The notes under the pieces are model-generated. The model had not been told where the DNA came from and ran no database searches. It saw nothing but the letters and a program-made list of their open reading frames with translations. A stretch of 64,000 nt of DNA from Bacteroidales bacterium. GTDB taxonomy: Bacteria; Bacteroidota; Bacteroidia; Bacteroidales; VadinHA17. The stretch is from contig JAOZPG010000005.1 of NCBI GenBank assembly GCA_029932855.1, forward strand, positions 829 to 64,828, given 5' to 3'. The translations under genes were made by a program, and so were the position numbers. Of the stretch, positions 1,198-27,854 are shown in pieces (the first letter of the stretch is position 1; each line of letters opens with the position of its first letter).

Positions 1198-1419
1198 TTA
1201 AGTCAACCGATTTACCCATGAACAATTATTATGCATTGACAAAGAATAGCTCTTTTGTTTTTTTAAGGTCGGAATTTTGTGTGTTAGCAAAAAAACAAAT
1301 CCGCTATTATGTCTTACCAGCCTGTTCTTCAAATCATTGGTCTGGCCTTTATAAAAGCGGTCAGCTGACACGGAATATAAAATATAAACCCAATACACAA
1401 GCTGCTTTTTTATAGACAA
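1198..1419 (-). CDS. GIY-YIG nuclease-family small protein, C-terminal part diverged or degraded
   Basis: VYWVYILYS...FYKGQTNDLKNRLVRHNSG matches the GIY-YIG/URI N-terminal motifs. The sequence after HNSG does not resemble the usual family C-terminus. It lies directly beside the tRNA. Confidence 0.55.
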   Translation of the reverse strand: MSIKKQLVYWVYILYSVSADRFYKGQTNDLKNRLVRHNSGFVFLLTHKIPTLKKQKSYSLSMHNNCSWVNRLT

Positions 1420-13534: not shown

Positions 13535-15865
13535 TTAATAAAGAATATTTTCTAACTTCCGGAACAGCCACATGAAGTTCTCCTTTGTTTCGTCATCAAA
13601 ATCTTCAAACTTCATATTGTTATCCTGTACCTCATTCATAAAATTTGATGCCAGTACAGCCCTCGAATACCTGTTATCCTTTAGGAATATTGAATTAGAT
13701 TCAGGAATACCAACCCTTTGATGTAATACATATTTTTTAAAGTCAAGGGTTGAGAAAAAATCTTCCACACTAAGGAAGCTTTCCATGTTTATAAGATATT
13801 TTTTTTCCAGCTTCCTGTCGCCCCTGCAAAGATTCTGCTTCAGGTCATTATGAATTTCCAGACCCTTTGCATTACCACCTGTAAGAACGATAAAATCAAT
13901 TCCCCAGCCCAGCAACAGGTTTACAAGGGTTTCAACATTAGAAATATGCGAAGAGGGAAGAAGGTAAACTTCCTTTTCCAGTTCTATCAGTGACAGTATG
14001 GTTGACAGGTAATAATAAGTAGATATGTCTTCAAGTATCACGTTATTCTTTTGCCGAATGTACTGTTGCTCGGAAAGACGGGCACCTATAAGGGTGTATA
14101 TAGGTGAAAGGGTATCTGCAGAAGCGGCTGTAAGCGATTTTGCATTGAATATCTTTGTCTCACTTGAATCTTTATCTTCTATCTCTCTTTGGACAGCAAG
14201 CAATCGGTATATCTTCTTTGAGTCTATCAGGTGGGGAGAATGAGTGGAATAGATCACCTGCATCCTGTCTTTTATATAATCAAAAACTTTTAATACATCC
14301 TCCTGTGCCCGGGCATGCAGACTGAGTCCCGGCTCATCAATAAGCAAAACCATGCCTTTCCCGTGCTCTGAAAGAGCAGCAGCCTTAAGTTCGAGGTAAA
14401 ACGACAGGAACCAGCGCACTCCCCTGCTCCGTTGCTTGGGATATAATCTTTCATGCCTGTCCTTTATCCAGAACTCCAGGTATGGATATCCGCTTTTTTC
14501 AGGATGGGACTGCGAATAATGCTCCATCTCGAAACTGATACTTATCTTGTTTCTTTTTCCTATTTGCTGCCTCCAGAAATCCTGAAAATCTACAGTAATG
14601 CTTCTATTGAGTCTTTCAATCTTCTGTTTTAACAGCCTGCTGCTTCCTTCCACAAAAAAAGAAGGTGTAAGTCCTGATAATTTAAGGAAATTCCTTGCAG
14701 CCCTCATCCCTTCTACCTCTCTATTGGCACCCAATATATCTTCCAGATCTATCTTGTTTGGCAAAAGACTGCTAAAGTCCTCAAACAGAACAAACTCGGG
14801 GATATGCTCAAATATAGCTGTACCAGCCTCTTCTCTTGAATAATACTTGTCTATATGAGGTTTTTCCGATTCCACTTCCCTTTCTGCTGCAGTCAGGGTC
14901 ATCCCCTCTGCAACTTTATAAGCCAGGTTAAGTTTTATTATTGCATCTTCATTTGCCAGATCATATTCCTGCAGTGCTTTAACATACTTTTCATTAAGCT
15001 TATCAAGCTCAGGCTTAACTCCTCTCCTGTCAATTTCATATTTTATTGAATTAAATATACGCTGCAGGTCCCTTAGCTCCTTATAAGTAGATTCAAGTAC
15101 ATCAATAGCTGTATCCAGCCTTATAGTTGCCTGCCTGCTGCTCTCGGCAATTTTATAATTGCGTGTAAGCTCTTCAGCTTCTTTTTTCAATAATTGTAAT
15201 TCCTTCTTTTTCCTGGTAAGAGTCCCTGTTGATTGTGCAAGATCTTTTTCCATTTTACTGAGTCTTGCCAGGCTGGCCTTATCAGCATCTTTTCCTTTTT
15301 TTAGCTTACTTTCTTTTTGCTCCTCTGCAATAAGTAATCTGAATCTGTCAATATCCTGCACCAGCATTTTCCTGTCTTTTTCAGCTTCAGCATATAACTG
15401 CACTGCTTTATCCTTCTTTTCCAGGCAGGCATCAACTTTCTTATGGAGTTTTTTCTGATATTCAGAATTCAGTTTTTCATGTTTATCAAATAAGGCAGAC
15501 ATCTTCTGCCCTCCGATCTTTATCCTGCTGCCGAGATCCTCATCCCATATCCTGGTGAGGCACAACTCCCTGGACGACTTTATTTGCTTCAATACTCCAG
15601 GTGGCAATTCCTTTTCATCGAGAACTTTTCCTGCCAGCCCGGGATCAATCTCAAAGCAACACGACACAACAGGGAGGCTCATGTCTCCCCTTAATATGTC
15701 TTCCGAAACAGTCCCTGTATAAAAGCTGTTTAATGCTTCGAGTATAGAAGTTTTCCCCGACTCATTCTGCCCTATGATTCCGGTAATATTATCCGGAGAT
15801 AAGTCATTCCATCCCGAGTCAATTATAGAACGGTAATTATGTATTCTAAAACTTATAAGTTTCAC
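13535..15865 (-). CDS. SMC/OLD-like ABC-type ATPase with coiled-coil insertion and degenerate TOPRIM-like C-terminal domain
   Basis: Walker A GQNESGKTS near the N-terminus. A ~220-aa K/E/L-rich heptad-like insert follows. Then RSRGVRWFLSF, Walker B VLLIDEPGLSLH and YSTHSP. The C-terminal segment NNVILEDISTYYYL...DFIVLTGGNAKG resembles a TOPRIM/DUF4435 core but lacks a DxD. Confidence 0.7.
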   Translation of the reverse strand: MKLISFRIHNYRSIIDSGWNDLSPDNITGIIGQNESGKTSILEALNSFYTGTVSEDILRGDMSLPVVSCCFEIDPGLAGKVLDEKELPPGVLKQIKSSRELCLTRIWDEDLGSRIKIGGQKMSALFDKHEKLNSEYQKKLHKKVDACLEKKDKAVQLYAEAEKDRKMLVQDIDRFRLLIAEEQKESKLKKGKDADKASLARLSKMEKDLAQSTGTLTRKKKELQLLKKEAEELTRNYKIAESSRQATIRLDTAIDVLESTYKELRDLQRIFNSIKYEIDRRGVKPELDKLNEKYVKALQEYDLANEDAIIKLNLAYKVAEGMTLTAAEREVESEKPHIDKYYSREEAGTAIFEHIPEFVLFEDFSSLLPNKIDLEDILGANREVEGMRAARNFLKLSGLTPSFFVEGSSRLLKQKIERLNRSITVDFQDFWRQQIGKRNKISISFEMEHYSQSHPEKSGYPYLEFWIKDRHERLYPKQRSRGVRWFLSFYLELKAAALSEHGKGMVLLIDEPGLSLHARAQEDVLKVFDYIKDRMQVIYSTHSPHLIDSKKIYRLLAVQREIEDKDSSETKIFNAKSLTAASADTLSPIYTLIGARLSEQQYIRQKNNVILEDISTYYYLSTILSLIELEKEVYLLPSSHISNVETLVNLLLGWGIDFIVLTGGNAKGLEIHNDLKQNLCRGDRKLEKKYLINMESFLSVEDFFSTLDFKKYVLHQRVGIPESNSIFLKDNRYSRAVLASNFMNEVQDNNMKFEDFDDETKENFMWLFRKLENILY

Positions 15866-15938: not shown

Positions 15939-16787
15939 TCAAATTTTCAGTCCCATTACAAGAATATCATCTACCTGGTCATAACTGCCTTTCCAGTTAA
16001 GAAATTCGTTAAGCAATAACTCTTTTTGCTCCCTCATCGGTCTTTTGCTGTTAGAATGTAACAGCGACTGGAACTGCCGGTATTTATATTTCTTACCTTT
16101 TTTCCCTCCAAACTGGTCAGCAAAACCATCTGAAAACAGATAGACAATATCTCCTTTATGCATAGTGATAAGGTGATTACTAAATGAAACTTCTTCTATA
16201 CCGCTGATACCAATAGGCATCCTGTCGCCTTTCATCTGCTTTATCTCTCCTTTCCGGATATAATGCAGAAAGTTATTTGCTCCTGCATACTGCAATTCAT
16301 TTGTTGATCTGTTCAATGCGATCAGGCCAATATCCATACCGTCCTGCGATTCATTTCTGGCACCTGTCTGGTGCAAAGCTTTCATAACCTTTTCTCTCAT
16401 CAGGTTAAGTATCCTGTTAGGCTTTATAAATTCCCTCTTCGACATGATCTCGTTAAGGAATGATATTCCAAGAATGCTCATCAGTGCACCCGGAACGCCA
16501 TGCCCTGTACAGTCTGCAACAGCGATATATATCCATTGATCCATAGGATATAACCAGTAGAAGTCTCCGCTGACTATATCTCTTGGCAGGTAAAGCACAA
16601 AATGTTCATCAAGATACCTTTCAAGTTGCTGATTGGGCGGTAGTAAGGCAGCCTGTATAAGGAAAGCATACTCTATACTGTCTGTAACCTCTTTCTTATG
16701 CCTTTCAAGCTCCTCCATGGCATCAGCAACACTTCCTGTATTGTTTTCAATATTATTCATCTGCTCAAAGTCATAATACCCTCTCAT
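15939..16787 (-). CDS. stand-alone PP2C/SpoIIE-family serine phosphatase
   Basis: SGDFYW, DCTGHGVPGALMS, SDGFADQFGG and DDILVMG motifs of the SpoIIE/RsbU-type PP2C domain. No sensor domain is attached. Confidence 0.8.
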   Translation of the reverse strand: MRGYYDFEQMNNIENNTGSVADAMEELERHKKEVTDSIEYAFLIQAALLPPNQQLERYLDEHFVLYLPRDIVSGDFYWLYPMDQWIYIAVADCTGHGVPGALMSILGISFLNEIMSKREFIKPNRILNLMREKVMKALHQTGARNESQDGMDIGLIALNRSTNELQYAGANNFLHYIRKGEIKQMKGDRMPIGISGIEEVSFSNHLITMHKGDIVYLFSDGFADQFGGKKGKKYKYRQFQSLLHSNSKRPMREQKELLLNEFLNWKGSYDQVDDILVMGLKI

Positions 16788-18852: not shown

Positions 18853-19581
18853 TTACCTTGTCAGGTATGAATAATTAATATTTCCTTCTTTCACACTATT
18901 CATAATCTCATTGTTTCTGATATTCCAGGAAACAGAAACATAATACAGTTTGACATCCAGGTCGCTGTATATCTTACCCTGTGTAGGATGAGTATAATTC
19001 TGATTCATATAGTTCTCCATGTAATATTTGAACTTTACATTAATACCTTTTGGTAATTGAATCCCCACAAAAAGTGAAGGAATGAACTGGTTCACCCTTT
19101 TACTGAACCAAGCGTGATACTTTCTTTTTTCACCATCCCTCTCTCCTCCTCCGTTGGGCCAGTATTTTTCCTTATACAGAAACTGCCATTCATATTCCCC
19201 ACCACCAAACAGGTACATATTATTATCAAATGATCCTAACTTAAGTGCCAGTGGAATACCAAGATTATAGGTTCTCCTGATGGTTTTCATATAATTACCC
19301 GGATTATTCGGATCATCCTCATTTGAAATAAAACCGATATTCCTTAAAGCAAGTCCGCTATACATCCCGATATTATTGGTGAAATCCATATGGGTGTATG
19401 AGCCAAGGTGTAAGAAAACTGTCCACCTAAGATTGGTCTCCGGTTCACTGCCTCCTGAATTAACATCACTCATCTGGAAAATCATTTCTCCGCCAGATGT
19501 AGTATAAACCTGTTTCTGAGCAAAACCCGGCTGTAAAGCCTGGAGAAACAATATCAGAAGCAACAGCCCCGAATACTTCAT
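18853..19581 (-). CDS. secreted hypothetical protein, probably an outer-membrane beta-barrel
   Basis: Signal peptide MKYSGLLLLILFLQALQPGFAQ. Alternating aromatic/hydrophilic strands. No recognisable catalytic motif. Confidence 0.4.
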   Translation of the reverse strand: MKYSGLLLLILFLQALQPGFAQKQVYTTSGGEMIFQMSDVNSGGSEPETNLRWTVFLHLGSYTHMDFTNNIGMYSGLALRNIGFISNEDDPNNPGNYMKTIRRTYNLGIPLALKLGSFDNNMYLFGGGEYEWQFLYKEKYWPNGGGERDGEKRKYHAWFSKRVNQFIPSLFVGIQLPKGINVKFKYYMENYMNQNYTHPTQGKIYSDLDVKLYYVSVSWNIRNNEIMNSVKEGNINYSYLTR

Positions 19582-19801
19582 GATTATTATTATTTCTTTA
19601 TGTTTCATAATTAATTACAATAAGTTGATTTATCCTCGTTTATGCTGTTCTTAGTATTGCTTTATTATTTAGCAGTTATGATCTTTAGGCCGAAAGATAT
19701 TACTTTCTGCTTAAAAAGACATAATCTTTATTATGAATTAACTCTAATACTATATGAATGAACCTTTATGCAAAGGATAGCCGGGATATCACCTGTATTG
19801 T

Positions 19802-20755
19802 TCAGCTATAATCATCATCTTTTCTAAATACAGCTTTACATATAAGAGGCTTCCCGAAAGGATGCCAGTCGTAATACTGATCACTCGAATCCGAATGCAG
19901 GCGCCATATCCATATATCAGGATACCTGGCTGAAAGCAACATACAGGAAAGAGCAAAAGGTTTGGGGCCAAGAGGTGCCAGTATAAGCTGAGAATCCAGC
20001 CTCAGGTCAACACACAGATCTTTAAGTATAAGATTTATCTTTTTAAGATCATCCATTGGATAGCGATAGACATTCTCAGGAGGAAGGCTGTTAAGTATCT
20101 CATTATTCCTGCTTTCAACCTCCTTAACAAACCTGTTATCAATACTGGGATCAGAATAAAAGGCAAATGTCCTTGCCGGACGAAGCCTGTTTATCAGTTC
20201 AAATGCCTGGTCCTGATCATATCCAAGTCCCAATACCAGTGAAACCGGTTTATTCTGGGAATTAATCTGTTTATCAGGGTATTTGTGTTTTTTTCTTTTC
20301 AGAATACTTCTTTTCTTGGATTTTTCGAATGCCGAGGGGGTATAAGAAAAGACTAAGTCCACCTCTTTGAGTTTCATATCCCAGTTAACAAAATAATTAA
20401 CAATAGTTGCATACCATTCTTTTGTCATACAGGAATAATCTATTAATATTCTTATCTTCTCCTGCTCAAAACTATTCAGGACAGACTCAAGGGTTTTTTG
20501 TATTTCATTGCCCGTGGAGCCCGAAGAATCGATAAACTCGAAATCCCTCTTTCTAAAGAATTCATCATTCTCAATACGGTAAGCATCCTTGTTCTTTTCT
20601 GTAAAAGCGAATACCAGTTTGGTAAATTGATTTAGCGGAAGATGTTCACTCAGGTAACTGCACCTTTTCTCGTAGCCTGAAACAGCTATTAACACATCAA
20701 AATGCTCATTTTTAACCGATTCAAATTCGAGTTGTTGTATGTCGGCCAGTTCCAT
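19802..20755 (-). CDS. orphan 317-aa cytoplasmic protein, two alpha/beta (Rossmann-like) halves, no recognised family
   Basis: Long clean ORF with no TM or signal peptide. Repeated strand-helix pattern (DVLIAVSGYEKR, IRILIDYSCMTKEW, VSLVLGLGYDQDQA, QLILAPLGPKPFAL). I could not match any family motif. Confidence 0.5.
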   Translation of the reverse strand: MELADIQQLEFESVKNEHFDVLIAVSGYEKRCSYLSEHLPLNQFTKLVFAFTEKNKDAYRIENDEFFRKRDFEFIDSSGSTGNEIQKTLESVLNSFEQEKIRILIDYSCMTKEWYATIVNYFVNWDMKLKEVDLVFSYTPSAFEKSKKRSILKRKKHKYPDKQINSQNKPVSLVLGLGYDQDQAFELINRLRPARTFAFYSDPSIDNRFVKEVESRNNEILNSLPPENVYRYPMDDLKKINLILKDLCVDLRLDSQLILAPLGPKPFALSCMLLSARYPDIWIWRLHSDSSDQYYDWHPFGKPLICKAVFRKDDDYS

Positions 20756-20867
20756 TAATTCTTGGTTCTCTGTATATTATTCTCTAATTGTAAAGATATG
20801 TAAAACTAATACAATTCAGGCTTTTCAACTCTAAGGATATTTTCAGAAAAACTAACTAATATATAGT

Positions 20868-20999
20868 TAAAAGGATAAAAGATAAAAGAGAAAAAATAAA
20901 AAAAGGATAAAAGGGAAAAGAGAAAGAATAAAATACAAAAGCAGATCCGGAGGACACACACTAACAACAGAAACAGCTGGAACAGCAGAAACAGGAATC
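20868..20999. repeat. ~130-bp homopurine(+)/homopyrimidine(-) low-complexity tract with a 13-nt direct repeat
   Basis: The plus strand is almost only A/G with scattered T/C. AAAAGGATAAAAG occurs at 20869-20881 and 20901-20913. Lies between the ncRNA terminator and the 317-aa ORF. Confidence 0.6.
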
Positions 21000-21003
21000 C
21001 CAT

Positions 21004-21045
21004 AAAACAAAAATGGGAAACCATTCTTAACGAATTGCTTCCCAT
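21004..21045 (-). terminator. intrinsic terminator of the candidate ncRNA
   Basis: Minus strand reads AUGGGAAGCAAUUC-GUUAA-GAAUGGUUUCCCAU (13 pairs, counting one G-U, and 1 mismatch; 21013-21045), followed directly by UUUUUGUUUU. Confidence 0.7.
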
Positions 21046-21526
21046 CTTCACCGCCTAAGGTCCGTAGACTTTATTTGGTGGCAGTTTACAGTTATTATGA
21101 CTTCCGCTTTGGTGTTTCTCCCGAAGGATCCGCTCCATGGCTTCTGAGCTTCCGGCTTTCGAAATCTTGCGATCCTTATACCTTTCACCCTGACTTCAGG
21201 CCCCATACGTCTCTGAACCTTGCGAAACAGTGACTTAGAGTTGAATTTAGTTGGGTTTCACCGTTTCCGGATTCACCGTTCTGCCTTCACCTGTGAAATC
21301 TGCCCTCTGCATCAGTTCTTCCAATCTTTTTCAGTCCTGCCCGGTCCTTTTTCAATTTCACCCTTGCGGGCTTCAGTTTCAAATTTCCTTGCTTTCTTCA
21401 AGCTGAACAGGGTAAAGCCGATCTTCAGATCTTTTGGCTTACGAGAGGTTGAATCCGGTTGGTCCCGTGAGGGGCTTTCCTTCTCCGACTTAAGACTTCA
21501 CGTCAGCCTTTTTTCTCTCAACTGCT
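21004..21526 (-). ncRNA. candidate large (~520 nt) structured ncRNA, family not recognised
   Basis: GC-enriched island with no minus-strand ORF of 60 aa or more. Bounded by a TTTG/TATTTTTG promoter and an intrinsic terminator. Has at least 8 short hairpins capped by GCAA, GAAA, UGAA, UUCG or UACG loops. GGUGAA occurs 6 times and AAGUC 6 times. See findings. Confidence 0.5.
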
Positions 21527-21530
21527 AGAT

Positions 21531-21562
21531 CAAAAATAGTACTCAATATTACTTTGTGCAAA
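21531..21562 (-). promoter_or_regulatory. Bacteroidetes-type promoter (-33 TTTG, -7 TAnnTTTG) for the candidate ncRNA
   Basis: Minus strand has TTTG (21562-21559), a 20-nt spacer, then TATTTTTG (21538-21531). This fits the Bacteroides sigma-A consensus TTTG/TAnnTTTG. Confidence 0.45.
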
Positions 21563-21787
21563 TATTTTTGACATTCTGTATCAACAATATATTAACATAA
21601 GTTATTAACAATTGTTAATAAGTATGGATCAGTTTAAAAAGCATATTGATATTCAATATATAACATATTTATAAATAGAATATTCACAACAAAATCAACT
21701 TATTAATATTGCTCTTATCATTAATAAAAGTCATAATCTGAATTAATTTTTAATATTATATTTGAGGAAAATTATAGAACGGGTATT

Positions 21788-23341
21788 ATGATAAAGAAAA
21801 TACTGATTGCCAATCGCGGAGAAATTGCTGTGCGTGTGATTAGGTCTTGCCGGGAAATGGGAATTTCCACGGTTGCAGTTTATTCCGATGCTGACAGAAC
21901 TGCCCTGCATGTAAGATATTCCGATGAAGCTTATTACCTGGGACCATCCCCTTCCAATCAGAGTTACTTGCTAATAGACAAAGTACTTGATGTTGCCAGA
22001 AGGTCGGGTGCCGATGCTATCCATCCAGGCTATGGTTTCTTGTCGGAAAATGCCGATTTTGCCGAAAAAATCGCCAGGGCCGGACTTATATTTATAGGCC
22101 CACAGGCTGGAGCCATACGTACTATGGGCGATAAGATAACTGCCAGGAAGACCATGATAAATGCGGGTGTACCTGTGGTTCCCGGAACAAAGGAAAAGAT
22201 TGTTGACGACAAGCAAATAGGTAAAATAGGAAAAGAAGTCGGATTCCCCATTATGGTTAAAGCCTCTGCAGGAGGCGGTGGAAAAGGAATGAGGCTGGTT
22301 CACAAGCCTGAAGATCTGGTTGCTGCCGTTAAGGGAGCACAATCCGAGGCCAGGGCTTCTTTTGGAGATGATTCCGTTTATATAGAGAAGTATATCGAAT
22401 CTCCGCATCATATTGAATTCCAGATACTGGCCGACAAACATGGTAATGCTATACACTTGTGTGAACGGGAATGTTCGGTGCAGAGAAGACATCAGAAAGT
22501 TGTTGAAGAAACACCTTCTCCCCTTATTACCGAAAAAATAAGAAAAGAAATGGGTAAGGCTGCTGTGGCTGCTGCCCAGGCTGTGAATTATGAGGGCGCA
22601 GGTACAATTGAGTTCCTGGTGGATAATGATCTTAATTACTATTTCCTGGAAATGAATACCAGATTGCAGGTTGAACATCCCGTTACCGAAATGGTTACAG
22701 GGGTTGACCTGGTTAAGGAACAGATACTTGTTGCATCCGGGGAGAGACTCAGCTATAAGCAAGAGGACATAAAGCAAAATGGTCATTCCATTGAATGCCG
22801 TATATATGCAGAGGATCCTGGAAACAATTTCATGCCCAGTCCCGGTCTCATTAACAGGATAATTGAACCACAGGGAGTTGGAGTTAGAAATGACGGATAT
22901 GTATATGCAGGATTTGAGATACCTCTTTTCTATGACCCAATGATCTCGAAGCTGGTCACATGGGGCAAGGACAGGAATGAAGCTATTAGCAGAATGAAAA
23001 GGGCTCTTGGGGAATATATTATTTCAGGCATACGCACATCAATACAATTCCTGCACAGAATAATGGAAACTCCTGCATTTGTCAATGGTAAGTACAATAC
23101 TCATTTTATTGCCGATAATGAAGAGTTCCTTTTTGAGCCTTGTATGTATGGTGCTCAAAAGAAAAAAATGACAAGGAAGGAAATGAAAGAGATGGAAGAT
23201 ATTGTCATGATAGCTACCCTCCTGGAGTATAATTTCCAGAGATCCAAAACAAATGGTACATCAGGTACAAACGGGGATACTGCTTCAAAAACAAGCACTT
23301 GGAAAGAGTTCGGAAGAAAAATTGGTGCCACAAGACTCTAA
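21788..23341 (+). CDS. accC: biotin carboxylase subunit of an acyl-CoA carboxylase
   Basis: MIKKILIANRGEIAVRVIRSCREMGI, the ATP-grasp GGGGKGMR loop and EMNTRLQVEHPVTE. About 60 aa of extra C-terminal sequence compared with the core. Confidence 0.9.
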   Translation: MIKKILIANRGEIAVRVIRSCREMGISTVAVYSDADRTALHVRYSDEAYYLGPSPSNQSYLLIDKVLDVARRSGADAIHPGYGFLSENADFAEKIARAGLIFIGPQAGAIRTMGDKITARKTMINAGVPVVPGTKEKIVDDKQIGKIGKEVGFPIMVKASAGGGGKGMRLVHKPEDLVAAVKGAQSEARASFGDDSVYIEKYIESPHHIEFQILADKHGNAIHLCERECSVQRRHQKVVEETPSPLITEKIRKEMGKAAVAAAQAVNYEGAGTIEFLVDNDLNYYFLEMNTRLQVEHPVTEMVTGVDLVKEQILVASGERLSYKQEDIKQNGHSIECRIYAEDPGNNFMPSPGLINRIIEPQGVGVRNDGYVYAGFEIPLFYDPMISKLVTWGKDRNEAISRMKRALGEYIISGIRTSIQFLHRIMETPAFVNGKYNTHFIADNEEFLFEPCMYGAQKKKMTRKEMKEMEDIVMIATLLEYNFQRSKTNGTSGTNGDTASKTSTWKEFGRKIGATRL

Positions 23342-23916: not shown

Positions 23917-25458
23917 ATGTCAACTTTAGAGCAAAAATTCAAAGACTTTGAAGAAAGAAATAAAACTGCTGAAGCCGGGGGTGGTGAAGAAAGAATAAAG
24001 AAGCAACATGCAACAGGCAAAAAGACTGCACGGGAAAGGATAAATCAACTTCTGGATAAAGGCAGTTTTGTTGAAACAGACAAGTTTGTACAACATCAGA
24101 ACAGGGATTTTGATATGGAAAAGAACAGACCCATGGGGGATGGCATGGTAACCGGTTATGGAAAGATAGATGGCAGGCTGGTATATGTATTTGCACAGGA
24201 CTTTACAATATTCGGAGGGAGCCTTTCAAGAAGCAATGCAGATAAAATAATAAAGATACAAGACCTGGCCATGAAGATGGGAGCTCCTGTAATAGGACTG
24301 AATGATTCGGGGGGAGCCCGGATACAGGAAGGAGTAAGAAGCCTTAGTGGTTATGCGGATATTTTTTACAGGAATGTGATGAGTTCAGGCGTAATTCCCC
24401 AGATATCCGCTATTCTTGGTCCCAGTGCAGGCGGAGCAGTCTATTCCCCTGCCCTTACTGATTTTATTCTCATGGTAAAAGAATCAAGCTACATGTTCAT
24501 TACCGGTCCCGATGTTATTAAATCTGTTACCCATGAAGATGTAAGTAAGGAAGAACTGGGCGGCGCACATACACATAACACTAAAAGCGGGGTTGCCCAC
24601 TTTATGGCAGACGATGATGAGCAGGCAATGATGATGATAAGGGAACTTTTCAGCTTCATTCCATCCAACAATATGGAAGATCCTCCAGTGGTTCCTACAT
24701 CAGATGACCCTGAACGGGAAAATTTGAAACTCTCAGATGTTGTACCTGTAGATCCCAACAAACCATACGATATTAAAGAGATTATTACCGAGATAGCCGA
24801 TAATAACTATTTCTTCGAGGTAATGCCTAATTATGCCCAGAATATGGTTATTGGTTTTATAAGGATGAATGGCAAGACTGTTGGTATAGTGGCAAACCAG
24901 CCTGCAATCCTGGCAGGAGTACTTGATATTAATGCCTCTGTAAAAGCAGCCAGGTTCGTCAGGTTCTGCGATGCATTTAATATACCCCTTGTAACCTTCG
25001 AGGATGTTCCCGGCTTCCTGCCCGGAACAACACAGGAATATGGAGGTATTATTACACATGGGGCAAAGCTTCTTTATGCTTTTTCTGAAGCCACAGTACC
25101 CAAGATCACAATAATTACCAGGAAAGCTTATGGAGGTGCATATTGCGTTATGTCAAGCAAGCATATAGGTGCTGATGTGAATTTTGCCTATCCCACTGCC
25201 GAGATAGCTGTAATGGGACCTGAAGGGGCAGTAAATATATTATTCAGGAAGGATATAAAATCGGATGAAGATAAGCAAAAACATATCGATGAATACAAGG
25301 AGAACTTTGCAAATCCTTACAGGGCAGCATCATTGGGATATATTGATGAGGTAATACATCCTAAAAATACCAGGAAAAAGATCATTCAGGCTCTGGAAAT
25401 GACCCAGAACAAGTCTCAGAGCAACCCTCCGAAAAAACACGGGAACATACCCTTGTAA
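23917..25458 (+). CDS. acyl-CoA carboxylase carboxyltransferase (propionyl-CoA carboxylase beta / methylmalonyl-CoA carboxyltransferase family)
   Basis: 513 aa. ARERI..LLD.GSF.E, DFT.FGGSL and GGAY motifs typical of the carboxyl_trans family. Confidence 0.9.
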
Positions 25459-26197: not shown

Positions 26198-26417
26198 CAC
26201 TCACCCTAATTCACAAGTAAATATAAGACCATTTTGTCTTATTTACAAATATTTTATGTTAACTTAAGTTAAAAACAGTCTTTTCCATCATATATATTTA
26301 TTCTTTAATCAGCTGCAAACATGTATTAATCATTCCAGAATCTTAAAAGGTCAAAATGAAAATACATTTTATTAGTTTTATGAAAAGAATATTGATCTCT
26401 AAGATCCTGATAATTTG

Positions 26418-27854
26418 ATGAAGTCAAAGCTGCATATAGTCCACAATCTGGCCATATCATTAATATTTATTTCTTTATGGCCTTTTGCCTCAACTTTATC
26501 TGCTCAGGACAGCCTTGTTGTTTCAATTGATACAAGCGATTATATTAAAGGAAACATAAATTATAATTTACTGATAGCCTCATACAAGGGATATGGAAGC
26601 GAGATAATCAGGCTTCTTAACATGGGAGCCTCTATAGATTATTGCTCAGATGAAGGCCTTAGTCCGTTGATGTACGCAGTTTCTGAAAGACAGATAGAGG
26701 CTGTAAAAATATTATTACTTAACGGTGCCGATCCCAATTTCGATCCTTTCCTTATAGAACCTCCTCTGGTTATCAGCGCCAGGAATGGATTTGCCGGGAT
26801 AACAGAGGAGTTAATAATTTCCGGAGCATATCTATTGGGAAAGGACCAGTACGGGGCAAGCCCTCTACACTATGCGGCGGCCTATAATTATCCTGTAATT
26901 GCAGATATGCTTCTGTATTACGGGGCTAAAGCTGATGTAGAGGATTATAGCCTCACAACACCCCTGATGGCTGCAACATATAGTGGCAACATTGGTGTAG
27001 CAAGACTTTTAATTAAGTATGGTGCACAAAGCACAAAAAAAGACATAAATGGTATTACTCCTTTAATGATTGCAGCACAGGCTGGCGATAGCCTGTTCGC
27101 AGGCTTCCTGATTGATAATGGAGCCAGGCTTGGCAGTAAAAGTGTAAATGGTAACAGTGCCCTGAACTCGGCGATATCTAATGATCACACATCAGTTCTT
27201 GATCTGTTTTATATTAAGAAATCTGAGCTCTTAAAAAAGGAACTTAAAAATACTCATCCTTACCTTATTAGCAGGAAATATAGCAGCAGGAATACTGAAA
27301 AATGGCTCAGGGAACACAATATAAAAAAGGACATGAGCCTGGGATTTTCTGAACTACATCTGGGAGGCGGCATCAGTGTCAACCAGGGAGATGCTTTATG
27401 GGGCTTTGCTGCGGGACTGAAGGAAGATTATACCGGTATATGTGCTGATCTGGAATATCGCACCAGGATAGGGCCAAAAAGAGTATTGTACGAACAGGAT
27501 AACAACAACTATTACCAGTTCTGGGAAAAAAGAAGAATGAGCTCTGTTCATATTTACAAGTTGTTTAAAATAATGTTCAGGGAAGGCATAAGCGGACCCT
27601 CTGCAGGTATCAGGGGACTTTATATTTTCGGACCCCTTAACAGGGGATCAGAACTGAAGCCGGAAAAACTCTGGAAAATTAGTCCCACGATAGGATGGAG
27701 CTTCAAGAACAAGAATTACCGTTTTGATATAAGCTATGAATACCTGTCGCTTGAATATCCGGATGAGAAAGCTCACTGGATTAACCTGTCACTATTTTAC
27801 AACATTCCTTTAAAAGCAAATAACTTCTCAAATAAGGAAATACCATGGTATTAG
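26418..27854 (+). CDS. secreted ankyrin-repeat protein with C-terminal beta-barrel-like domain
   Basis: Signal peptide (LISLIFISLWPFASTLSAQ). About 6-7 ANK repeats (G.SPLMYAV....EAVKILLLNGADPN; ASPLHYAAAYNYPVIADMLLYYGAKADVED; TTPLMAATYSGNIGVARLLIKYGA...). The last ~180 aa have alternating aromatic strands. Confidence 0.75.
   Translation: MKSKLHIVHNLAISLIFISLWPFASTLSAQDSLVVSIDTSDYIKGNINYNLLIASYKGYGSEIIRLLNMGASIDYCSDEGLSPLMYAVSERQIEAVKILLLNGADPNFDPFLIEPPLVISARNGFAGITEELIISGAYLLGKDQYGASPLHYAAAYNYPVIADMLLYYGAKADVEDYSLTTPLMAATYSGNIGVARLLIKYGAQSTKKDINGITPLMIAAQAGDSLFAGFLIDNGARLGSKSVNGNSALNSAISNDHTSVLDLFYIKKSELLKKELKNTHPYLISRKYSSRNTEKWLREHNIKKDMSLGFSELHLGGGISVNQGDALWGFAAGLKEDYTGICADLEYRTRIGPKRVLYEQDNNNYYQFWEKRRMSSVHIYKLFKIMFREGISGPSAGIRGLYIFGPLNRGSELKPEKLWKISPTIGWSFKNKNYRFDISYEYLSLEYPDEKAHWINLSLFYNIPLKANNFSNKEIPWY

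Follow-up and report, generated by a model that had tools for sequence, protein, structure and literature searches.

A new family of large structured noncoding RNAs predicted in uncultured Bacteroidales

What is encoded by half a kilobase of DNA that is markedly richer in G+C than the spacers on either side of it, and in which no gene has been called? This question is raised by the minus-strand element at positions 21004-21562 of a stretch of 64,000 nucleotides (nt), hereafter the window, from a Bacteroidales bacterium of the GTDB lineage VadinHA17 (GenBank assembly GCA_029932855.1, contig JAOZPG010000005.1, positions 829 to 64,828 of the forward strand). A preliminary description of this DNA had proposed that the element is a large, unclassified structured noncoding RNA (ncRNA) that extends from a promoter to a terminator, and this proposal is supported by the existence of homologues, by covariation, by the lack of a coding signal and by the lack of any match in Rfam. 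The element almost certainly represents a genuine, selected and structured ncRNA family, and this family is new, since no described family fits it and it is not included in Rfam 15. All sequence details given here for minus-strand 21004-21562 were read directly from the window.

A conserved noncoding transcription unit

In order to retrieve relatives, 80 loci were collected from species-representative genomes through the neighbouring biotin carboxylase gene; the best of these carboxylases is 68% identical, and the source organism therefore has no close sequenced relative. A search of these loci with the element by means of nhmmer revealed full-length homologues in five of the 80, all of them Bacteroidales metagenome-assembled genomes (MAGs), where the RNA is either at the corresponding place, oriented away from the carboxylase operon (three of the five), or just downstream of the operon (the remaining two). 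A family search pattern composed of the promoter and the 5' block, drawn from a six-sequence alignment (A1), was then found at no fewer than 120 loci in JGI metagenomes, and at least 103 metagenome loci combine the 5' block with an independent 3' block, both lying on one strand and separated by 257-668 nt. The matches listed include 93 distinct sequences, which fall into length classes near 330, 450, 510-550, 595 and 630-670 nt, giving the family a span of about 330-670 nt. Loci were also obtained independently of any RNA feature, by way of rplQ homologues on long contigs, and all three lineages retrieved in this manner carry the RNA between eno and ubiD, with TAnnTTTG, GAGCGAUAAAAG and the 3' block in place. 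Taxonomy of the carriers was taken from MAG labels only, and the labels of all close homologues of the neighbouring proteins read Bacteroidales or Bacteroidota MAG. With many members in Bacteroidales MAGs and metagenomes, the family is, as far as sequence collections indicate, widespread in uncultured Bacteroidales/Bacteroidota.

The boundaries that had been proposed for the element are present as described. On the minus strand, a -33 promoter element, TTTG (21559-21562), is located 20 nt upstream of a -7 element, TATTTTTG (21531-21538), which conforms to TAnnTTTG; 6 nt further on comes the conserved CA with which the closing helix P1 opens. TTTG / TAnnTTTG is the sigma-A promoter consensus of Bacteroidota. 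TAnnTTTG is present in six of the six sequences of alignment A1 and also in the rplQ-retrieved loci, while in the metagenome loci it is part of the search pattern, and those loci are not counted as promoter evidence. The motif [T/C]TTG, at a spacing of 18-21 nt, recurs in homologues that were found without a promoter criterion (L004, L030, L055, L202, L203 and L205). At the opposite end, an intrinsic terminator (21004-21045, minus strand) consists of a stem at 21013-21045 followed by a U-tract at 21004-21012. In a core alignment of 54 sequences 94.6% of the terminator cells pair and 13 of its 14 pairs covary, and the base of the stem, AUGGGAA/UUCCCAU, is conserved at 90% or more and lies outside the search pattern. 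A simple terminator scan did not detect the terminator at 21004-21045 because its stem is interrupted. The block of homology shared with five relatives (L096, L122, L143, L117 and L159) stops at 21002-21006, which is the 3' end of the unit. Between promoter and terminator a transcript of ~520 nt is predicted (21004-21526, minus strand), whose 5' end would be at ~21523-21526 and whose 3' end would fall within the U-tract 21004-21012.

The composition of the element had been presented as a sharp G+C island, and the counts behind this view are exact (27/60, 31/60 and 13/60 in the three 60-nt segments concerned), although the island is sharp only in comparison with flanking intergenic DNA and mild in comparison with genes. 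The element has a G+C content of 46.3% and consists of 61% purines, compared to 19.5% and 29% G+C in the intergenic DNA at its flanks, a window mean of 39.5% and values of up to 45-49% in nearby coding DNA. Two motifs noted as recurrent do occur six times each, far above shuffled sequences, with 0.25 copies expected for GGUGAA and 0.59 for AAGUC and with none of 2000 shuffles equalling either count; family-wide, however, the excess is only mild (3-fold for GGUGAA and 1.5-fold for AAGUC), and most of the copies in the window have no conserved position among the seven closest sequences. The element itself is single-copy, both in the window and per locus.

Comparison with the closest relatives, L096 and L100, suggests that it is the nucleotide sequence of this unit that is maintained. 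The RNA is 85-86% identical to these two, against 76-77% for the flanking carboxylase genes, in which third codon positions are 45-50% identical, and identity by codon phase is flat in the RNA (0.83/0.84/0.89) and strongly periodic in the carboxylase genes (0.86/0.93/0.50). No open reading frame (ORF) is conserved on either strand, and open frames shift in frame and length among close relatives. This includes an ORF of 102 amino acids (aa) on the antisense, plus strand, which had been put down to chance and which indeed has no Pfam match, has not been called as a gene in any record of the collection searched and is not kept as a frame in relatives. These comparisons point to purifying selection at the nucleotide level on a noncoding RNA. 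A promoter and a terminator of its own, nucleotide-level purifying selection and covarying helices are thus all found for this unit, which would be a stand-alone gene for a structured ncRNA of ~520 nt with a Bacteroidota-type promoter and an intrinsic terminator.

A covarying core around an invariant loop

The proposed structure is based on the core alignment mentioned above (A4), in which the first 27 nt (5') of 54 diverse sequences were joined to the last ~105 nt (3'). In the core helices 86.3% of cells pair, a share that falls to 33-48% once the partners are shifted by 1-3 columns; both sides change in 32 of the 38 pairs, and the covariation score, 0.495 against ~0.1, was reached by none of 500 shuffles. 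Mutual information computed without any structure input places the same core pairs at the top, and RNAalifold returns the same frame for 20 sequences of the ~540-nt class, for the subgroup of the window (n=7) and for the minimal group of ~330 nt. When nine sequence groups were folded in separate RNAalifold runs, seven gave the same top-level layout, that is, a multibranch closed by P1, then hairpin H3 and then the terminator. In the architecture supported by these data, the ends of the RNA pair in P1, P1 and P2 enclose a nearly invariant loop, P2 opens into a lineage-variable bundle of tetraloop-capped arms, and a UNCG-capped H3 and the terminator, with its sequence-conserved stem base, follow P1.

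Helix P1 is formed by GCAGUU (21520-21525) and AACUGC (21081-21086), both on the minus strand, and joins the first nucleotides of the RNA to a segment ~430 nt downstream, so that the helices supported by covariation include one that connects the two ends. The family consensus of P1 is CCAAGU/AGCUUGG, and the window version thus represents a compensatory change at multiple positions. Across the alignment 95.7% of P1 cells pair, three of six pairs change on both sides (with pair counts of A-U 33 / G-C 19 and of C-G 34 / U-A 8 / G-C 2 / A-U 1), and P1 is among the top mutual-information pairs. Helix P2 consists of GGCU (21505-21508) and AGUC (21099-21102), likewise on the minus strand, and covaries in A4 with counts of G-C 24 / G-U 16 / A-U 13 and of C-G 40 / U-A 7 / U-G 3. 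The window subgroup offers an alternative to P2, in which AAGGCU (21510-21505) pairs with AGUCUU (21497-21492), the first of the AAGUC repeats, with one compensatory change; this local hairpin might serve as a folding intermediate or as a switch.

P1 and P2 are separated by a highly conserved part of the RNA. Its 5' strand, J1/2, reads GAGAGAAAAAA in the window (21509-21519, minus strand) and varies little or not at all in A1 and A4; the rplQ-retrieved loci, for which no RNA pattern was used, retain it as GAGCGAUAAAAG, while its conservation among metagenome matches is partly forced by the search pattern. Its 3' strand, J2/1, reads AUAAUAACUGUA (21087-21098, minus strand) and is conserved in A4, where AAUAAC and the final A show no variation (zero entropy) across the 54 diverse sequences; J2/1 was part of no search pattern, and its invariance is therefore independent evidence. 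P1 and P2 hence enclose a nearly invariant, purine/A-rich internal loop with the consensus GAGNGAUAAAA opposite AnAAUAACnGUA, comprising about 25 invariant nucleotides. Watson-Crick pairing of the two strands with one another is impossible, and G·A and A·A oppositions are frequent in them. Pairing was also considered for those positions of J1/2 and J2/1 that vary, and was dropped, given that it showed no clear covariation. As leads only, the UAA and GAN triplets of the loop resemble the UAA/GAN internal-loop motif, and the (A)GUA/GAG arrangement beside P1 resembles a loop-E/S-turn. As a separate observation, the window has an A at 21514, a nearly invariant position of J1/2 where at least 90% of the family has a U (GAGAGAAAAAAG versus GAGAGAUAAAAG), which is a rare deviation.

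Directly after P1 follows hairpin H3 (21049-21080, minus strand) with a C(UACG)G loop, of which 13 of 13 pairs change on both sides across the family and which has the highest mutual-information pairs of all; a short GUGA-type linker then leads to the terminator.

The remainder of the RNA (21103-21504, minus strand) is a multi-arm body with GNRA and UNCG caps, as folded by RNAalifold from the seven closest sequences, in which approximate domains A (21304-21448), B (21243-21288) and C (21120-21200) and a hairpin at 21213-21230 can be distinguished, all on the minus strand. In the window subgroup about 20 helices are predicted beyond the core. This fold has 115 pairs, 43-44 of them with compensatory changes, and 94% of its cells are paired, compared to at most 51% when slid, values that are optimistic because the structure was derived from the same alignment on which it is scored. 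Individual body helices are accordingly provisional, and only the core is claimed firmly. Seven tetraloop hairpins that had been pointed out in the element and were checked here, as well as a longer hairpin at 21412-21442, are all found at the positions given for them, but some of the local or alternative pairings suggested at the time for the body differ from those that covary. In particular, a competing helix of 7 base pairs between 21171-21177 and 21124-21130 was not borne out, as RNAalifold on the seven closest sequences keeps the local GCAA hairpin instead and, in our reading of the alignment, the distal partner is not kept beyond the closest relatives. Across the family the body varies two-fold in length, the number of arms ranges by group from 3 to more than 8, and hairpin number rises with RNA length. 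GNRA hairpins are 4-fold and UNCG hairpins 7-fold more frequent than in shuffles; loop identities are mixed (GAAA 128, GCAA 115, UUCG 106, UACG 39, and others), and GNRA and UNCG caps interchange at equivalent arms between groups. No conserved k-mers were found in the body beyond generic tetraloop hairpins.

Relation to known RNAs and possible function

A conserved RNA of this size calls for comparison with the large RNAs already described. A cmscan run with all 4227 Rfam 15 models at gathering scores identified only a tRNA-Thr elsewhere in the window, and at E<=10 nothing was found on the element within 20700-21800 (1.1 kb), the one reported match being noise in the AT-rich spacer; 17 diverse homologous loci likewise had no match on the element at E<=1. 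The covariance models of RNase P RNA (RF00010/RF00011) were matched neither in the window element nor in these 17 loci, and the same applies, at the respective thresholds, to OLE, GOLLD, ROOL, HEARO, raiA and the other large Rfam models. The family was also examined for signature strings of RNase P, transfer-messenger RNA (tmRNA) and signal recognition particle (SRP) RNA; in RNase P, CR-I and CR-V, which are regarded as universally conserved, form P4. Neither CR-I (GAGGAAAGUCC) and CR-V (ACAGAA..CGGCUUA) nor the SRP domain IV signature is present in any of the 93 members at up to one mismatch. As for tmRNA, ARAGORN finds only the tRNA-Thr in the window, the T-arm string is present in a single element of the 93, and the 3' end is an intrinsic terminator. 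There is no Rfam match to 6S RNA, and the multibranched family of 330-670 nt differs from the 6S rod of about 185 nt with its central bubble. The preliminary statement that no RNase P, tmRNA or SRP/6S signatures are seen is thereby upheld. No description of the family was found in the literature, including by searches with conserved sequence strings, a survey that did not cover one recent preprint on prokaryotic ncRNA mining. Another unannotated Bacteroidota RNA, near uS9/uS2 (10.64898/2026.09.15.751765), is not the same as this element.

Several known systems nevertheless offer instructive parallels. OLE RNA of Bacillota is also stand-alone, highly structured, about 600 nt long and confined to one lineage, its function was long unknown, and it works in a ribonucleoprotein (RNP); however, it belongs to another phylum and has no sequence or covariance-model similarity to the family. 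In OLE, conservation extends over most of the molecule and there is a genetic link to protein partners (oap genes), whereas the present family has only a small conserved core and no linked gene. ROOL and GOLLD are likewise large and ornate RNAs of bacteria, rich in hairpin arms and without a known protein partner, and they are often associated with prophages or tRNAs. In contrast, the family described here has ordinary chromosomal, housekeeping-type neighbours, is single-copy per locus, and gave no match to its pattern in IMG/VR, no blastn match in INPHARED (50,697 phage records) and no covariance-model match, so that no phage or mobile-element character is apparent in these viral collections (plasmids were not searched). 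RNase P RNA and tmRNA resemble the family in architecture only, through paired 5' and 3' ends and a conserved core with lineage-variable peripheral helices; CR-I/CR-V, the tRNA-like end and the tag ORF are missing here, and the 3' end is a terminator rather than a processed acceptor end. The raiA motif RNA is a conserved, structured and independently transcribed ncRNA (as is predicted here) with a housekeeping-like distribution, but it measures about 200 nt, occurs in Bacillota and Actinomycetota, differs from the Bacteroidota family of 330-670 nt in architecture and gave no match in the Rfam searches described above. It corresponds to ModT of Clostridioides difficile and is present in thousands of species, with a biochemical mechanism that is still unresolved (PMC11706538).

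How the RNA might act is suggested by its neighbours, which differ by RNA subgroup. The acyl-CoA carboxylase operon and MsrB are located beside it in four related groups, while the minimal group lies beside ClpS, NUDIX and a steroid-reductase-like gene, another group beside rpoA-rplQ (or rplQ-eno ... ubiD) and yet another beside YceI-like genes. Because the flanking genes change with lineage in this way (carboxylase operon, ClpS, rpoA-rplQ, eno/ubiD, YceI), the RNA would be expected to act in trans, perhaps as a housekeeping-type RNA. Its functional site would be the small invariant core, most likely a non-canonical surface recognised by a protein, and the variable body would mainly provide a stable fold. 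A small partner-binding site, as opposed to a distributed catalytic core, is suggested because the invariant positions cluster in a single internal loop of two strands and at the terminator base, and because the body has no conserved k-mer other than generic tetraloops and tolerates two-fold variation in length. Protein-recognised RNAs such as SRP, 6S and Y RNAs likewise join one invariant non-canonical loop to a body that drifts freely, a pattern seen less typically in ribozymes that have several conserved junctions, which is why an RNP scaffold or decoy, with a partner bound at the conserved core, is favoured here, if only tentatively. This likeness is an analogy, in that a small invariant non-canonical loop between helices serves those RNAs as protein-recognition site while the rest drifts; they are rods or hairpins of 100-200 nt, and the RNA described here is 2-4 times larger and multibranched.

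Several observations weigh against this interpretation. A concentrated conserved loop would equally suit the binding of a ligand, the organisation of tertiary structure or catalysis at a small site, and no protein family or gene is consistently linked to the RNA across lineages. Since the pattern by which most homologues were retrieved contains the promoter and J1/2, these two parts look more invariant than they are, and conservative members are over-represented in the sample. An alternative RNAalifold scoring gives another body fold, and some helices have equally plausible alternatives. Finally, single-sequence folding is no better than in shuffles, with z = -0.66 and 0.02 on the two strands, so that thermodynamic stability is not exceptional; folding energy being unremarkable, the claim of structure rests on comparative data.

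Explanations that would deprive the element of its novelty, or of its status as a stand-alone RNA, fare poorly. In its paired ends and variable middle the RNA is reminiscent of RNase P RNA and tmRNA, yet a diverged RNase P RNA, tmRNA, 6S, OLE, GOLLD, ROOL, HEARO or raiA RNA, or a published non-Rfam family missed by the searches, is very improbable in view of the Rfam, ARAGORN, signature (0/93 for RNase P and SRP, 1/93 for the tmRNA T-arm) and literature results given above. A cis-regulatory leader, a protein-coding gene or a degraded gene is hardly credible and has been largely refuted: while a 317-aa ORF is present downstream on the same strand and the 102-aa frame is open on the antisense strand, the downstream ORF is separated from the RNA by a strong conserved terminator, at which both the unit and the homology end, downstream genes vary by lineage, and the coding comparisons revealed no codon periodicity, no conserved frame, no Pfam match and no called gene. 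A link to the 317-aa ORF was considered and set aside, as homologues of that ORF lie elsewhere in other loci.

Among the functional alternatives, a ribozyme, in which the P1/P2 loop buttressed by variable arms would be the catalytic centre, as in RNase P or group I/II introns, could account for the large size, the closing helix that joins the ends, the modular arms whose number varies by lineage, the density of GNRA/UNCG caps (4-fold/7-fold over shuffles) and the roughly 25 invariant nucleotides in a purine-rich loop, and large complex bacterial RNAs have in general often proved to be catalytic. This explanation is nonetheless rather unlikely, as invariance resides in a single loop and not in several junctions brought together by pseudoknots, swaps between GNRA and UNCG at equivalent arms make conserved tetraloop-receptor contacts unlikely there, no substrate is evident and no Rfam ribozyme matches. 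ROOL, GOLLD and OLE have been shown by cryo-EM to form RNA-only homo-oligomers (PMC12286853). That the present RNA is such an architectural particle is improbable, although it is a stand-alone, ornate RNA of several hundred nt without a linked protein gene and its many stable hairpin arms could mediate intermolecular contacts; it has no homology to ROOL, GOLLD or OLE, it is absent from the viral and phage collections searched, where ROOL and GOLLD often occur, and the body that would carry the interfaces is poorly conserved. Quite improbable, too, is a base-pairing regulator that would use the purine-rich J1/2 as a seed for pyrimidine-rich targets, or a sponge of the CsrB/RsmZ type. An own promoter and terminator, contexts of the trans type, the six copies each of the purine motifs GGUGAA and AAGUC in the window and the growth of hairpin number with length would suit such a role, but the conserved stretch lies in an internal loop facing an equally conserved strand rather than in an open seed, the repeated motifs are mostly without positional conservation, and 330-670 nt is far above the size of known Bacteroides small RNAs. 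The sponge idea in particular was rejected, since loop sequences are heterogeneous, with mixed GNRA and UNCG caps interchanging between groups, and provide no single repeated binding motif. A new class of large bacterial RNA with the P1/P2 loop as active site or assembly interface, that is, a new ribozyme or a self-assembling particle that is standard in many uncultured Bacteroidales, would accordingly be an unlikely outcome, whereas the protein-bound scaffold or decoy remains the interpretation tentatively preferred.

The interest of the family is readily stated. There are few large, conserved and structured bacterial RNAs whose function is unknown, and RNase P, tmRNA, 6S, OLE, ROOL/GOLLD and raiA each revealed unexpected biochemistry. 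In many uncultured lineages of Bacteroidales, represented in environmental metagenomes, the present family seems to be a regular chromosomal gene. Bacteroidales are not known to possess Hfq, ProQ or CsrA, and the RNA biology of the group is little known. The novelty claimed here is at the level of the RNA family, and a widespread RNA of more than 300 nt is worth pursuing for the specialist. In this regard, about 25 invariant nucleotides in one loop constitute a compact, testable target, and natural size variants down to a transcript of roughly 290-300 nt are suited to structural work.

Genomic surroundings and further observations

Adjacency to the acyl-CoA carboxylase genes was also considered as a possible functional link. 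The RNA is adjacent to them in 21 loci, on either side, but as these are confined to four related groups the association is regarded as lineage synteny. The carboxyltransferase of the window (23917-25458, plus strand) has been found in a single further public assembly, Logan SRR21545388; this one occurrence, together with the 68% identity of the best biotin carboxylase relative, indicates that the source organism is rare and uncultured.

Downstream of the RNA, a pyrimidine-rich minus-strand tract, TTCTTTCTCTTTTCCCTTTTATCC, lies at 20800-21000 between the terminator and the 317-aa ORF; it contains a spurious hydrophobic ORF of 81 aa and is not conserved among relatives. The 317-aa ORF (19802-20755, minus strand) and a 251-aa ORF (18853-19608, minus strand) have no match in Pfam or NCBIfam. 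Homologues of the 317-aa protein with 37-41% identity are encoded in L014, L015 and L004, and L100 has a match at the DNA level, in each case without linkage to the RNA.

Further along the minus strand, a 776-aa ATPase of the AAA_15/AAA_21 type (13535-15865) shows weak similarity to the anti-phage ATPases PtuA and MADS3, and it is adjoined by a SpoIIE-type PP2C phosphatase (15939-16787, minus strand); this pair is possibly a defence locus. On the plus strand, 26415-27854 encodes a 479-aa ankyrin-repeat protein in a bacterial chromosome context. Lastly, a thiamine pyrophosphate (TPP) riboswitch scoring 66 bits was detected at 1214-1310 (minus strand) of L198, on the same metagenome contig as a member of the RNA family of minimal size, and is unrelated to the element.

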